Part shown: positions 32,069 through 37,111 of the stretch, in pieces
Numbering within the stretch: the first letter of the stretch is position 1
Layout of the letters: the number at the start of each line of letters is the position of its first letter
Sequence record: OR352938.1
Direction: 5' to 3' (one strand)
Origin: Escherichia phage AV108
Length of the DNA: 64,000 bases
Position numbers and translations under genes: made by a program
Notes under the pieces: generated by a model
Told to the model about the DNA's origin: nothing
The model's input: only the letters and a program-made list of their open reading frames with translations
Databases searched by the model: none

Positions 32069-32260
32069 TTAGATTCCGGCGATCCTGCATAGAGTTCTTG
32101 TATTAGCACCAATAAGGATAGCATTAACGACAACCATTCCCCAATCAACCCACTGATTATTATAAATGCTAAACCCGTTTGCAAGACCAAATACAAGCAT
32201 TCCGGTACACATACTCAGAGCAATAATCAACATCACGGTAAAACCAAATGCAAATTTCAT
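32069..32260 (-). CDS. small hydrophobic membrane protein (63 aa)
   Basis: Almost entirely hydrophobic; immediately upstream of the endolysin. Confidence 0.45.
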   Translation of the reverse strand: MKFAFGFTVMLIIALSMCTGMLVFGLANGFSIYNNQWVDWGMVVVNAILIGANTRTLCRIAGI

Positions 32261-32261
32261 A

Positions 32262-32477
32262 TTATTTTCCTTTTCTCTGTTTACGTTTATAAAAGTAATA
32301 CATTACCTCATCACGTCCGGTGATCCAACATGCTAGGGCGGTAAACAGGTTTACAATTCCCAACACACCTACTGACGCGGCGCTGTCAACAGACATAGGA
32401 ACAGTAAAGGCCATAGCTAACATAGCAACGCCACAAATGACATTAAGCACCATTATAATAAGACCGAAGAAAACCAT
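32262..32477 (-). CDS. small hydrophobic membrane protein (~71 aa)
   Basis: ORF track 32262..32528; internal ATG at 32477 avoids overlap; basic C-terminal tail KRKQRKGK. Confidence 0.45.
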   Translation of the reverse strand: MVFFGLIIMVLNVICGVAMLAMAFTVPMSVDSAASVGVLGIVNLFTALACWITGRDEVMYYFYKRKQRKGK

Positions 32478-32479
32478 TG

Positions 32480-32659
32480 TCAATCCTCCGACACAAGAAA
32501 ACCAACAATCACGCCAGTGATAAGACATGATGCGCCGCTAATCAGACAACCCGCACCAAGTGATTCCCACCAGATCAGAGAAGCGACAATAACACAGAAT
32601 CCCCATACTACCGCAATCACAACATAGGCAAGGGTCGCCCAAAACATATATTTGTTCAT
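32480..32659 (-). CDS. small hydrophobic membrane protein (~59 aa)
   Basis: ORF track 32480..32671; two hydrophobic helices. Confidence 0.45.
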   Translation of the reverse strand: MNKYMFWATLAYVVIAVVWGFCVIVASLIWWESLGAGCLISGASCLITGVIVGFLVSED

Positions 32660-32844
32660 AATAAATCCCATTCACCAAACAAATAAGAAAAAAGCCATAT
32701 CAACAGAAACGAGGCAATTGATCCGGCAAGCAAAATGATATTAGAGAATCCACCGTCTATCCAGGCGACAAAACAGAATACGCTAGTATAGAAGCATAAA
32801 CCCATTACAAAGCATACTATAAGCAACCATAGATAAAACGCCAT
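32656..32844 (-). CDS. small hydrophobic membrane protein (62 aa)
   Basis: ORF track; two hydrophobic helices. Confidence 0.45.
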   Translation of the reverse strand: MAFYLWLLIVCFVMGLCFYTSVFCFVAWIDGGFSNIILLAGSIASFLLIWLFSYLFGEWDLL

Positions 32845-32905
32845 AGAAAGTCCTCCAGCGAGATAAATTAGTGCGGGTAGTGGAATGTACTACCCGCTTT
32901 GTTAA

Positions 32906-33064
32906 TCAACGCAGAGCTTCTTCTAGCGCGATCCCAAACCATCCACAAACAACGCCCATACAGACAGCTACAAGAAGATTCATTCTCTCTTTAGGGATCA
33001 TTGCAATCATAACAACAACCATACAGAAAGCCATTACTATTGAAGTTAACATTTGTTCAACCAT
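32906..33064 (-). CDS. small hydrophobic membrane peptide (~52 aa; coordinates approximate)
   Basis: Hand translation MVEQMLTSIVMAFCMVVVMIAMIPKERMNLLVAVCMGVVCGWFGIALEEALR; AAGGTG RBS; below track size cut-off. Confidence 0.35.
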   Translation of the reverse strand: MVEQMLTSIVMAFCMVVVMIAMIPKERMNLLVAVCMGVVCGWFGIALEEALR

Positions 33065-33066
33065 TA

Positions 33067-33399
33067 TCACACCTTTAAAGTCATAGACGCATAAACATTA
33101 ATGCCAGGCCAGTTAGGATCGCAATTATACTCAACATCCCACAAATAAAGCGGTTTAGATGTATCAGCCAAGTTTTTAAAATCTTCTACCCACATTTCAA
33201 GGCTATATGATGGATAAACTAGGCTATCATATCCGCCGTAACGTTGGCCTACTGGTCGGTCAGTAAAAACTACCTCAAGATCCGGTAATTCTTTTTCAAG
33301 GATAACCGCCAGCGCATAAATCAGACGGTCTTCCTTGTTACGCTGCCGTAGGACCGTTGTCAGTTGGTTTTTCTGGTTCACTAGCAAGCACCTCCACAT
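33067..33399 (-). CDS. hypothetical protein (~110 aa; overlaps upstream ORF by ~60 nt)
   Basis: ORF track 33067..33405 (GTG start); first ATG at 33399. Confidence 0.4.
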   Translation of the reverse strand: MWRCLLVNQKNQLTTVLRQRNKEDRLIYALAVILEKELPDLEVVFTDRPVGQRYGGYDSLVYPSYSLEMWVEDFKNLADTSKPLYLWDVEYNCDPNWPGINVYASMTLKV

Positions 33400-33658
33400 T
33401 TTCACAGAATGAAATTTTCACAGACACAATTTTACCATAAGTGAAGAATGAATATACATTATCGAGATATTCAACGTCACCTACAATCACATCAAACTGC
33501 GGATCAGCCACTGCCGCAACATATTCTACCAGTTCATCAAGAGAATGCAACTTAATTTCATCAATTCGGCTGTATTTGGTTGCATCTTTAATTTTAAAAC
33601 CACGTTCTTTCAGCTTGTCAATCAGAATTTCACGCGGAGTTTCAAACAGTTTGCTCAT
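33338..33658 (-). CDS. hypothetical protein (106 aa)
   Basis: ORF track; gaggattatattaATG start context. Confidence 0.5.
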   Translation of the reverse strand: MSKLFETPREILIDKLKERGFKIKDATKYSRIDEIKLHSLDELVEYVAAVADPQFDVIVGDVEYLDNVYSFFTYGKIVSVKISFCENVEVLASEPEKPTDNGPTAA

Positions 33659-33679
33659 AATATAATCCTCACATTAAAT

Positions 33680-35366: not shown

Positions 35367-35552
35367 TCAGAAATATGCAATATAGTTTGCCAGTCCTACA
35401 GAGTCATCATTCGGCATTGCTTTTACTGCCAGTTCAAACCCTGCTTCAACTTTCTGTTTAGCGGATTCTTCGTTATAACCCCAGATTACCAGAATAGCTA
35501 CTACGTTTTCTTTGCTTACTGCTTTCAGTGCTTTAGTGATGCGACGTGCCAT
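35367..35552 (-). CDS. hypothetical early protein (61 aa)
   Basis: ORF track; first gene after a promoter cassette. Confidence 0.45.
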   Translation of the reverse strand: MARRITKALKAVSKENVVAILVIWGYNEESAKQKVEAGFELAVKAMPNDDSVGLANYIAYF

Positions 35553-35630
35553 AATTTGATTCTCCGTTTAAGAAAGTGTGTTTCGTTTCGATGTGTGTAT
35601 TATGCTATAGGCCGGATCTGGTGTCAACAA
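35553..35630 (-). promoter_or_regulatory. PeSL-like early promoter-leader cassette
   Basis: Minus strand GTTGACA, one GATC in spacer, tatagcataatacacac -10 region, leader cgaaacgaaacacac...cggagaatcaaattATG. Confidence 0.6.
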
Positions 35631-35657
35631 CTTTTTTTTAAAAAATTTTAGGCAATA

Positions 35658-35685
35658 AAAAAGCCACTCCGAAGAGTGGCTTATA
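35658..35685 (-). terminator. rho-independent terminator
   Basis: Minus strand gccactcttcggagtggc hairpin followed by ttttttatt. Confidence 0.6.
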
Positions 35686-35832
35686 GGGAAGGTAGCGAAT
35701 CTTCCTTGTCTCCAACCTGCTAGCGGCCTAGCAAGTTAATGCTTTAGCGTACCGGATCGCCCACATACGCTGTAATAAATGCGGCTAGGTGACGTCCAAA
35801 TCATTCTAACCGCGCTGTCTTTAGTTCACTAT
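35686..35832 (-). ncRNA. candidate small non-coding RNA (between a TATAAATA motif and a terminator; no ORF)
   Basis: ~150 nt minus-strand interval with internal hairpins (TGCTAG-gccg-CTAGCA; GGAAG..CTTCC) and no plausible ORF with an RBS; bounded by late-promoter-like TATAAATA (35833-35840) and the terminator at 35658-35685. Confidence 0.3.
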
Positions 35833-36050
35833 TATTTATATCGCTTTCTCTCGCGACGTTTTTGATCTTCTTCCTTGATAGAGTTAAATGCATCAAAAAG
35901 ACACATGACACTAATAATAAACATAACCGTATTTTCTACGATATCCCACGGCTTCGCATCAGTACAGATCCCCCAAACGGTAAGAAATGCAAATAAGGCA
36001 GAAGAGATCACAAGCAGGATACTTGCTAAGATATAAAAAGTCATTTTCAT
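35832..36050 (-). CDS. small membrane protein (72 aa)
   Basis: Two hydrophobic helices; basic C-terminal tail QKRRERKRYK. Confidence 0.45.
   Translation of the reverse strand: MKMTFYILASILLVISSALFAFLTVWGICTDAKPWDIVENTVMFIISVMCLFDAFNSIKEEDQKRRERKRYK
35833..35840 (-). promoter_or_regulatory. T4-type late promoter motif TATAAATA
   Basis: Plus-strand tatttata, i.e. TATAAATA on minus, overlapping the stop of 35832..36050 and facing the ORF-free gap. Confidence 0.35.
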
Positions 36051-36241
36051 GGTTTTACCTCAATTCTTCGATATTCATCACACATCCACGCAGTAAGCAA
36101 GAATCCCAACACATAAGCAACAAAATACGTTAATGCTTCTTCTGGTTCGGTGCTATGCGCCATCATCAGACCAGCGAGAAAGGTCTTAACAATTACATTT
36201 AAAATAATTAGCCACGCAAATAATTTCATCGTTTGCCCCAT
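36047..36241 (-). CDS. small membrane protein (64 aa)
   Basis: Two hydrophobic helices; stop/start overlap with neighbours. Confidence 0.45.
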   Translation of the reverse strand: MGQTMKLFAWLIILNVIVKTFLAGLMMAHSTEPEEALTYFVAYVLGFLLTAWMCDEYRRIEVKP

Positions 36242-36465
36242 TTCGGTCGAGTCTTTTCAAACTTATACATTCCGTAACAATCTCGAATCATCCACGTAAC
36301 AAGAGCACCAGTCAACACAGACAATACACAGAAGAAGTAAAACGGTCCGGTTGCATTATCAACATGAGCAAGCCAGGTAAAGAAAACACATGCAAGGAAT
36401 GTAAAGAACATCATAAAGCACAAGAAAGCGAAATATTTTATACTACTCATAGCGCCACCATACAA
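36226..36465 (-). CDS. small membrane protein (79 aa)
   Basis: Two hydrophobic helices; basic C-terminus. Confidence 0.45.
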   Translation of the reverse strand: MYGGAMSSIKYFAFLCFMMFFTFLACVFFTWLAHVDNATGPFYFFCVLSVLTGALVTWMIRDCYGMYKFEKTRPKWGKR

Positions 36466-36739
36466 CAGATCATAAGAAACCCCAACGCAATAAGAATTGC
36501 GTCAAATTTAGTGAACTCCGGTCCACCTATCAACATCATTCGTTCCTGTTCATTCATAGATCACAGAGCCATCTGAAAGCACCACATAAAGCGAGCAGAA
36601 TACTAGGTATAAACGAGACTAAAACAAGTTGGCAAAAATCATCTAAGGTAACACCGGAATAGCTACCTACTGTAACAACACCGATCATCAGACACAGAAA
36701 GAAAACAAATGCAATCAGAAACAAAGTATTGCTAAACAG

Positions 36740-36943
36740 TTAGTGATCATTAGACACCCCACGACGATCAATTTCAAAAACTTTTTTATCATCAACGAAG
36801 CATGTCACAACTGCCTCGTTGACTTCCGCAAATTGTTGTGTTACCCACTTAAGGTCAGAGCGAAACAATGTTCTATTAATAACAAATGTTTTACCGCTCT
36901 TATCCTTACCCATAAATTTTGCTTTAACCATATCCAATTCCAT
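36740..36943 (-). CDS. hypothetical early protein (67 aa)
   Basis: ORF track. Confidence 0.4.
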   Translation of the reverse strand: MELDMVKAKFMGKDKSGKTFVINRTLFRSDLKWVTQQFAEVNEAVVTCFVDDKKVFEIDRRGVSNDH

Positions 36944-36952
36944 ATTATCACC

Positions 36953-37111
36953 TTATTTGCTAATCGCTAAACCCAATCCGAAGAGAGCACCCGATGCTAC
37001 AGTATACCCGAAAGTTTCAAAGGCAGTAAAGATATCTAAGCCACCAGCTAACAGAGTTGCAGTAAACAGAGTACCAGCTACGAACATAAAAGTTTTACCG
37101 ATAAATTTCAT
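36953..37111 (-). CDS. small hydrophobic peptide (~52 aa; coordinates approximate)
   Basis: Hand translation MKFIGKTFMFVAGTLFTATLLAGGLDIFTAFETFGYTVASGALFGLGLAISK; ATG directly follows the aggagaatcaaa leader. Confidence 0.4.
   Translation of the reverse strand: MKFIGKTFMFVAGTLFTATLLAGGLDIFTAFETFGYTVASGALFGLGLAISK

Follow-up and report, generated by a model that had tools for sequence, protein, structure and literature searches.

An array of tiny predicted membrane-protein genes between the endolysin gene and 57B of RB49-like T4-type phages

Phage T4 carries a dense array of tiny hydrophobic open reading frames (ORFs), almost all of them without an assigned role, in the hyperplastic early region between motA/52 and denB. 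By the criteria that we also applied to its relative RB49, 15 of 125 small T4 ORFs are rich in transmembrane (TM) helices, and nine of these 15, tightly packed or overlapping, fall within 3.3 kb (motA.1, 52.1, ac, ndd.2, ndd.2a, ndd.3, ndd.4, ndd.5, and ndd.6; NC_000866 163730–166996). The hyperplastic regions of phages RB49 and phi1 have 'PeSL' cassettes as their hallmark, and promoter and terminator activity has been demonstrated for copies other than those treated here (PMC2839356); the description of PeSL-bounded ORFan cassettes in these phages did not remark on the membrane nature of the ORFans (Arbiol et al. 2010). Here we characterise a locus in which 14 genes for hydrophobic proteins of 36–74 amino acids (aa) lie between an M15-type endolysin gene and gene 57B, using a stretch of 64,000 nucleotides from Escherichia phage AV108 (record OR352938.1; hereafter the window), to whose positions all coordinates refer unless another genome is named.

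Judged by its sequence matches, the window belongs to an RB49-like (Krischvirus) T4-type phage: a 5.6-kb stretch of it matched 58 phage records at 90–99% identity, all of them RB49-like (genus Krischvirus, Straboviridae), with Shigella phage Sf20 the closest (98.7%). In the RB49 annotation, the locus extends from RB49ORF102c (putative endolysin) through RB49ORF125c, flanked by vs.8 and vs.6 on one side and by 57B, 57A, and gene 1 on the other; every gene from the endolysin to 57B is on the minus strand. Because T4 gene e has the same flanking genes, the M15 endolysin can be placed in the syntenic slot of e, and the hydrophobic ORFs fill the interval from e to 57B, which in T4 contains nudE, e.2–e.8, the tRNA cluster, segB, and ipI. 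A first-pass annotation of this DNA had called the layout unlike that of T4, in which e and the holin gene t are unlinked. That contrast did not survive comparison: t is unlinked to the endolysin gene in RB49 too, T4 has e.2–e.4 upstream of e, and it possesses a dense array of its own.

The same annotation had counted at least 12 hydrophobic ORFs in about 5 kb, several translationally coupled and five directly upstream of the endolysin gene (31649–32038). All of them were recovered on the minus strand, with A1 to A5 being the five next to the endolysin, and C4 and C5 were additional, bringing the total to 14 genes (13 frames in the window, where B1 and B2 are fused). Their grand average of hydropathy (GRAVY) ranges from 0.35 to 1.78, and two TM helices are predicted in 12 of the 14, in agreement with TMHMM calls published in 2006 for the RB49 orthologues (PMC1524935, Additional file 2). 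About 9–10 of the 14 combine a basic N-terminus, an acidic loop devoid of basic residues, and a basic C-terminus, a charge pattern that under the positive-inside rule points to N-in/C-in hairpins; the C-terminal tails of A2, C1, and C3 are strongly basic. Coupling takes the form of five 4-nt ATGA overlaps (C5>C4>C3>C2>C1 and A4>A3) and of spacers of 1–2 nt (A3>A2>A1 and B3>B1). The concentration of such genes is far above chance: hydrophobic genes account for 14 of 24 in the locus versus 7 of ~77 other early-strand ORFs of the window (Fisher p = 2e-6), and in 105 kb of RB49, where 17 of 110 small ORFs outside the core are TM-rich, 13 of these 17 belong to this locus.

Individually, and all on the minus strand, the genes of cluster A are A1 (32069–32260; 63 aa; RB49ORF103c), with a GRAVY of 1.13, TMHMM helices at residues 5–27 and 37–54, a ratio of nonsynonymous to synonymous polymorphism (pN/pS) of 0.21, and membership of phrog_15016; A2 (32262–32477; 71 aa; RB49ORF104c), with two predicted TM helices, a basic C-terminal tail, and a pN/pS of 0.06; A3 (32480–32659; 59 aa; RB49ORF105c), with two helices; A4 (32656–32844; 62 aa; RB49ORF106c), with two helices and not a single basic residue, overlapping A3 by the ATGA motif; and A5 (32906–33064; 52 aa; RB49ORF107c), with two helices joined by a basic loop, which is probably N-out/C-out and hence inverted relative to most of the others. 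Cluster B consists of B2 (33680–33877) and B1 (33878–34075), each of 65 aa with two TM helices, and of B3 (34077–34259; 60 aa; RB49ORF112c), likewise with two. In cluster C, C1 (35832–36050; 72 aa; RB49ORF118c) has two helices followed by a highly charged C-terminal tail; C2 (36047–36229; 60 aa; RB49ORF119c), which overlaps C1 by ATGA, has two helices; C3 (36226–36450; 74 aa; RB49ORF120c; pN/pS 0.09) has two and a basic C-terminal tail; C4 (36447–36557; 36 aa; RB49ORF121c) has one C-terminal helix and would be tail-anchored; and C5 (36554–36724; RB49ORF122c) has two helices and measures 56 aa from a TTG codon here, 65 aa in relatives. The glycine-rich D1 (36953–37111; 52 aa; RB49ORF124c), with two predicted helices, is the first gene of its operon.

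Two single-base homopolymer differences are private to the window. At ~33888–33892, on the B1/B2 junction, a change from AAAA to AAAAA (one A more than in relatives) joins the two genes into a four-TM frame of 131 aa (33680–34075); they are separate genes in Sf20, RB49, and GEC-3S. At ~36739–36741, on the dmd/C5 junction, the loss of one A (AAA to AA) puts the C5 ATG, which overlaps dmd, out of frame and leaves a TTG start without a Shine-Dalgarno (SD) motif, while the 65-aa C5 is intact in Sf20, RB49, and JSE. Both differences are either sequencing errors or strain-specific variants.

Whether the ORFs are genes at all had been left to comparative analysis in the first-pass annotation, and the answer was positive. 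Across 10 Krischvirus genomes nearly every hydrophobic ORF is intact, variable sites are skewed to the third codon position, and pooled pN/pS lies between 0.06 and 0.55 (0.21 for the endolysin). A divergent metagenomic clade (L014; contigs up to 175 kb) retains the whole array in the same order, as do the 58 isolates, and all TM ORFs have dN/dS values (nonsynonymous over synonymous substitution rates) of 0.05–0.53 against this clade at dS of 0.1–1.3. An SD-like motif precedes 12 of the 14, and C4 depends on its ATGA overlap. The 14 ORFs are true genes under purifying selection.

They nevertheless evolve faster than the soluble genes of the same operons. Most TM ORFs are 33–89% identical to their counterparts in the divergent clade (A5, for example, 65%), the exceptions being C3 and C4 at 94–99%; C3 is the most constrained, with 99% identity at dS = 0.24. 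The soluble genes s1, s2, s3, s7, and s8 are 97–100% identical across the same distance. Median dN amounts to 0.119 for TM ORFs versus 0.023 for soluble neighbours, a ~5-fold difference (Mann–Whitney p = 0.011), with dS not significantly different. Alleles of B2 are highly divergent (33–69% identity). JSE-type genomes have no B1, and their two-TM version of B2 is very divergent; the predicted TM topology holds down to 33% identity. Rearrangement was observed next to A5, where a GC-rich 9-bp hairpin (32873–32897, minus strand) in the 61-nt A5–A4 spacer (32845–32905) coincides with breakpoints: in JK32 (L009 1319–1773), part of A4 is duplicated in tandem and joined to the end of A5, and Skers (L010 2647–2751) has an additional truncated copy of A5.

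Each hydrophobic ORF matched its own tiny PHROG, with function unannotated, and the 14 families are mutually unrelated: all BLASTP comparisons gave E ≥ 0.1 with composition-based statistics, and the best of 189 pairs in an all-versus-all hhalign comparison of family alignments reached a probability of 13%. An origin of the array by tandem duplication was therefore rejected. Searches of 5.8 billion proteins with A2, B2, and C3 returned only Krischvirus-like proteins, and an exhaustive phmmer search of 1.84 billion representatives with the B1–B2 fusion returned only its own family, a single relative at 41% identity, and a repetitive protein judged spurious. By these searches, the hydrophobic families are restricted to the genus.

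Five intergenic sites in ~3 kb (37618, 37171, 35627, 35358, and 34665) share a stereotyped cassette composed of an A-rich tract, a TTGACA-N17-CATAAT promoter, often with an internal stem, a leader ATCGAAACGAAACAC, and the SD sequence GGAGAATCAAAATG. The cassettes coincide with promoters annotated in GEC-3S and match the published RB49 early-promoter predictions Pe:57746, 58430, 58699, 60244, and 60694; after Pe:57746, the next early promoter downstream is Pe:52389. Published terminators (TransTerm sites) agree with those found here. The PeSL-type promoter at 37143–37171 (minus strand; Pe:60244) is predicted to drive the operon D1-dmd-C5-C4-C3-C2-C1, which runs to a terminator at 35682–35661. 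The PeSL-type early sigma70 promoter at 34637–34665 (minus strand; Pe:57746; annotated in GEC-3S), with 11 of 12 consensus matches and stereotyped flanks, would serve the longer operon s3(LPD25)-B3-B1-B2-s2-s1-A5-A4-A3-A2-A1-endolysin-vs.8-vs.6, down to a terminator at 30546–30523. Internal TTGACA-N17 sites at 33967, 32483, and 30608 were discarded as promoters, having no PeSL flanks and being missing from the published lists. From this layout we infer that host sigma70 switches the arrays on early.

Compared with that of T4, the Krischvirus array is larger yet, as far as sequence features go, the same kind of feature. It occupies a different hyperplastic region (endolysin–57B rather than 52–denB), and the RB49 counterpart of the T4 array interval, between 52 and rIIB, contains three ORFs only. 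The T4 array ORFs measure 26–51 aa, have mostly one TM helix, and total 350 aa, versus 36–74 aa, mostly two-TM hairpins, and 847 aa in Krischvirus, and the two arrays share no sequence or profile similarity. Within the syntenic interval upstream of the endolysin, T4 has e.2, e.3, e.4, and trna.4, transcribed in the same direction; trna.4 encodes a predicted 61-aa N-in/C-in hairpin, like most Krischvirus ORFs. In the T4 slot, 4 of the 15 genes are of the membrane type, versus 14 of 24 here; e.2–e.4 are larger (102–130 aa), and homology is not detectable. More broadly, the array ORFs showed no homology to e.2, e.3, e.4, trna.4, Imm, Sp, 61.4, ac, 52.1, 47.1, or 55.8 of T4. As a hyperplastic ORFan/PeSL region, the locus is recognisable by its position between vs.8 and 57B, its five cassettes, its genus-restricted families, and its variable content. 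It resembles the PeSL-bounded ORFan cassettes of the same phage group in the presence of these cassettes and in content that varies among isolates, and differs from them in that the TM ORFs are mostly internal to operons, not each flanked by PeSL elements. The membrane character of the proteins is already tabulated, in the 2006 supplement (PMC1524935) and in the GenBank notes of Sf20 and W115; we found no discussion in the literature of the clustering or function of these membrane ORFs.

The endolysin at the end of the longer operon (31649–32038, minus strand; orthologue of RB49ORF102c) is an M15C L-alanyl-D-glutamate peptidase by its matches to the PHROG 465 endolysin family (E = 7.5e-69) and to PDB chains 23ri_A (E = 9e-88) and 8q2g_A (E = 1e-83 to 1e-88 over the two); it is predicted to be soluble and lacks both TM helices and a signal peptide. 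A 40-nt hairpin (32071–32032, minus strand) pairs its SD and AUG with upstream sequence (dG = −12.4 kcal/mol, z = −4.7, 0 of 200 shuffles equally stable). RB49 (z = −4.3) and the divergent clade L014 (z = −4.5) retain this hairpin although their sequences have changed. The 5' arm of the hairpin includes the A1 stop codon and overlaps a late-promoter-like TCTAAATA (32073–32066, minus strand), one mismatch from the late consensus. The fold is lost in an RNA starting at 32058, and this short RNA is unstructured. A hairpin of this kind, with a late promoter in its 5' arm, is documented for T4 gene e, in a survey of gene e leaders that put RB49 and phi1 under 'no apparent gene e' and hence left them unexamined (PMC3014915). 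What the two share is a conserved hairpin over the endolysin SD and AUG, with a TATAAATA-like box in the DNA of the 5' arm; they differ in that the enzyme here is a non-orthologous M15 peptidase and that the box reads TCTAAATA, with C at −12.

By analogy, the hairpin would keep the endolysin silent in early read-through RNA, and the gene would probably be translated only from a short late transcript; because the late-like box sits in the DNA of the 5' arm, RNA initiated there would lack the inhibitory strand. The endolysin is thus probably co-transcribed with cluster A but not co-expressed with it early. Two points count against this use of the box: RB49 late promoters seldom have a C at −12, and the site is missing from the published list of 17 RB49 late promoters. 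The retention of e-like translational masking on a non-orthologous endolysin is a by-product of the analysis that may be of more immediate interest than the array itself.

The neighbourhood of the array contains genes with known or suspected links to conflict. The first gene of the longer operon, s3 (34268–34594, minus strand; 108 aa), carries an LPD25 domain (Pfam PF18840, E = 5e-14); dmd (36740–36943, minus strand), between D1 and C5, encodes a soluble antitoxin against RnlA/LsoA-type toxins (phrog_2102, E = 1e-31; T4 Dmd by tblastn, E = 1e-14); and 57B (37662–38132, minus strand) has an orthologue annotated by Pfam as Acb1, directed against the cyclic-oligonucleotide-based anti-phage signalling system (anti-CBASS). 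These three share the hyperplastic region with the membrane ORFs.

Among superinfection-exclusion proteins, the ORFs can be compared with Imm of T4, an early protein of 83 aa that resides in the membrane; a hydropathy scan gave it two hydrophobic helices, and its C-terminal tail is charged. According to a 2026 preprint, T4 Imm acts by binding the tape-measure protein of the incoming phage and prevents entry of the genome, a mechanism also proposed for HK97 gp15. Imm, Sp, and 61.4 are missing from the RB49 annotation and were not found by tblastn in ~127 kb of Krischvirus DNA (T4 Imm E ≥ 1, with Dmd as the control at E = 1e-14). With no imm homologue in Krischvirus, an exclusion function would call for an Imm analogue. 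The array ORFs fit an Imm-like profile in size, TM architecture, and early promoters, their exclusion activity being putative: like Imm, they would be small early inner-membrane proteins with two helices and, in some, a charged tail, encoded by accessory genes in a plastic slot. The inter-helix loop of Imm is basic, as opposed to the acidic loop of most array ORFs, and comparison with Imm produced no Pfam match at E ≤ 1 or 0.1, phmmer E > 0.1 in a 14-sequence database, and hhalign probabilities of ≤13%.

These findings suggest the following account, which as a whole we regard as the probable explanation of the region. The locus would supply 14 tiny inner-membrane proteins, mostly N-in/C-in hairpins whose short periplasmic loop is acidic, which host sigma70 polymerase would transcribe immediately after infection from PeSL cassettes in two compact, coupled operons; the translationally coupled sets may form hetero-oligomers. 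Early in infection, the proteins would then serve at the inner membrane as accessory factors in conflict. The part of this account in which we place high confidence is that the array encodes accessory proteins of the inner membrane made early, as opposed to a lysis cassette. A specific role in exclusion or counter-defence is a much more tentative proposal, its likeliest forms being an Imm-like block on the entry of competitor genomes or the neutralisation of membrane-linked defences or abortive-infection effectors. It is suggested by the early timing, the Imm-like architecture, the conflict-gene neighbourhood, the fast evolution, the allele replacement, the lack of imm and sp, and the analogous array of T4. 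Superinfection exclusion and membrane-directed anti-defence had both been named as candidates in the first-pass annotation, and both agree with all the findings here. In its most specific form, the array would be an immunity arsenal of unrelated Imm-like hairpins, each directed against the entry of a different competitor phage (for example, its tape-measure or ejection proteins) or against a different abortive-infection effector of the host, with some coupled sets (C5–C1) being hetero-oligomeric. We consider this version improbable; if true, it would make the region the membrane arm of an anti-defence island together with Dmd, Acb1, and the LPD25 protein.

Several considerations weigh against the conflict interpretation. 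The early timing comes from promoter prediction, and the argument for a role is built from timing, architecture, and neighbourhood, the ORFs having no homology to exclusion or counter-defence proteins. The faster evolution of the TM ORFs may reflect loose constraint on TM helices, all dN/dS values being below 1. A two-TM, N-in/C-in protein with a basic tail also fits class II holins, so that architecture by itself would leave a lysis-timing role for A2, C1, and C3.

T4 Ac and small bacterial membrane-protein regulators act on host membrane machinery. The main rival to a conflict role, which we nonetheless think unlikely, is that the mini-proteins are host-takeover effectors, perturbing inner-membrane machinery (transporters, respiration or proton-motive force, proteases, the divisome) or permeability early in infection. 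Early operons and very small hairpins without soluble domains suit this idea, the T4 array contains ac, a determinant of membrane permeability, and novel-ORF regions are under-represented in plasmid libraries, suggesting toxicity (PMC1524935). The restriction of the families to one genus and their rapid divergence and allele swapping are less expected if the targets were conserved host components, and no similarity to known regulators or toxins was found.

A role in lysis was among the suggestions of the first-pass annotation, in the form of holin, antiholin, and spanin sets, and it has some features in its favour. Cluster A adjoins the endolysin gene and would be co-transcribed with it, so that A1 and A2, or the basic-tailed A2, C1, and C3, could be imagined as holins, pinholins, antiholins, or timing modulators that arrived with the M15 endolysin or serve it. 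Class II holins and pinholins of the phage 21 S21 type are proteins of ~60–75 aa with two TM helices in an N-in/C-in arrangement, which A2, C1, and C3 resemble down to the basic C-terminus, and A1 and A2 lie next to the endolysin gene. The nearest non-Krischvirus endolysin (63% identity, in a P2-like phage) is preceded by a holin.

The rest of the evidence goes the other way. RB49 has a complete T4-type lysis set elsewhere in its genome: the T4-type holin gene t (RB49 154972–155628, next to the tail-fibre genes), the antiholin gene rI (48388–48690), and the spanin pair pseT.3/pseT.2 (128606–129321) all lie tens of kilobases away from the endolysin gene, an arrangement shared with T4. Consistent with this, a spanin census puts RB49, Phi1, and JSE in T4 spanin families, and the genes listed in a paper on a Krischvirus genome include a holin, a pair of spanins, and an endolysin. 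We scanned all 14 TM ORFs with hidden Markov models (HMMs) from Pfam and PHROGs, and 10 frames each with those from NCBIfam and PADLOC. The scanned hydrophobic ORFs reached no Pfam, NCBIfam, or PADLOC model and matched only tiny, function-less PHROGs. The best holin scores, weak matches with E = 0.03–0.05, were 14.8 bits for A2 against Phage_holin_3_5 (cut-off 27) and 14.1 bits for C3 against Phage_holin_3_6 (cut-off 28.4), within a range of 11–15 bits against cut-offs of 27–28; C4, C5, and D1 had no Pfam holin matches, and the NCBIfam matches to Hok and BlpZ were far under their cut-offs. None of the 14 ORFs has a lipobox or, by eye, a soluble segment near the size of that of an i-spanin; the sole non-hydrophobic stretches longer than 20 aa are in A1 (36 aa) and B3 (34 aa), and both include a weak second TM helix.

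The genomic context argues in the same direction. The arrays belong to early-type sigma70 operons, the sole late-like box near the endolysin lies downstream of the A1 coding sequence, and the hairpin that masks the endolysin SD would uncouple its translation from A1. In a further difference from class II holin and pinholin systems such as that of phage 21, the enzyme is soluble and carries no signal-anchor-release (SAR) sequence. Import of a holin together with the endolysin was rejected, the P2-type holin being unrelated to A1–D1 (hhalign ≤13%, phmmer E > 0.06); the ORF that follows a Yersinia phage endolysin showed no relationship to A1–D1 either. Conserved linkage between M15 endolysins and TM arrays was likewise dismissed: a 46%-identical M15 endolysin in the T4-like Slopekvirus has no hydrophobic array upstream. 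Taken together, the arrays are not supported as lysis machinery, and a lysis role is very unlikely.

That the ORFs are evolutionary flotsam, cheap ORFans shuffled in by PeSL recombination with no specific function and some of them mis-called from the T-rich coding strand, might be suspected in a hyperplastic region where ORFans are known to come and go, with a B1–B2 fusion and a lost C5 start in the window and no B1 in JSE-type genomes, and is hardly credible given the ordered retention of all 14 genes across 58 isolates and the divergent clade, purifying selection on each ORF, the 99% identity of C3 across clades at dS = 0.24, and a TM topology preserved at 33% identity.

A second by-product of possibly more immediate interest is a candidate small RNA with strong conservation. 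It is a non-coding element (35655–35845, minus strand) in the gap that separates the C1 stop codon from the terminator of the operon. An invariant, exact TATAAATA box (35840–35833), a site missing from the published RB49 late-promoter list, is followed there by ~165 nt that fold, with dG = −61 kcal/mol and z = −3.3, into four hairpins plus the intrinsic terminator at 35682–35661. Across clades, column identity averages 94%, compared with 67% for the adjoining C1 gene (dS 1.28). One stem pair changes from G-C to A-U, and the terminator loop exchanges UUCG for GAAA. All six reading frames of the element are interrupted by stops; it occurs in a single copy and has no relationship to T4 RNA C/D. 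When the locus was scanned against Rfam and for tRNAs, the only matches were sub-threshold and driven by the terminator, and no tRNAs were present; a scan of IMG/VR for divergent copies returned two near-identical ones and no further covariation. We regard the element as a candidate late small RNA or 3'-untranslated-region stabiliser.

Among the remaining genes, s1 (33067–33381) and s2 (33338–33658), both on the minus strand between clusters B and A and overlapping by 44 nt, are soluble ORFans that are 98–100% identical across clades differing by up to 67% in the adjoining TM ORFs. HMM scans, PDB sequence searches, and Foldseek returned no family, PDB, or fold match for either; single-sequence AlphaFold2 models had mean pLDDT values of 68 (s1) and 58 (s2), the best Foldseek hit of s1 against the PDB had E = 0.16 with TM-scores ≤0.36, and this line was discarded. 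Beyond the end of the longer operon, a 197-aa ORF resembling HNH/AP2-type homing endonucleases (29910–30503, minus strand) separates nrdC.11 from vs.6. RB49 lacks a gene at that position, the metagenomic relative L017 has an HNH_3-type gene there, and JSE and JK32 instead carry an AP2-like ORF immediately downstream of the endolysin.

As it stands, the analysis documents a known T4-type pattern, in which hyperplastic regions are stocked with tiny early membrane ORFans. If an exclusion or counter-defence role were true, this 5-kb locus would offer 14 new, tiny, and tractable membrane proteins for studying how phages guard the inner membrane. Krischvirus phages are in therapeutic use, and such a role would explain how a T4-type genus without Imm and Sp excludes competitors, which would be relevant to the design of phage cocktails.

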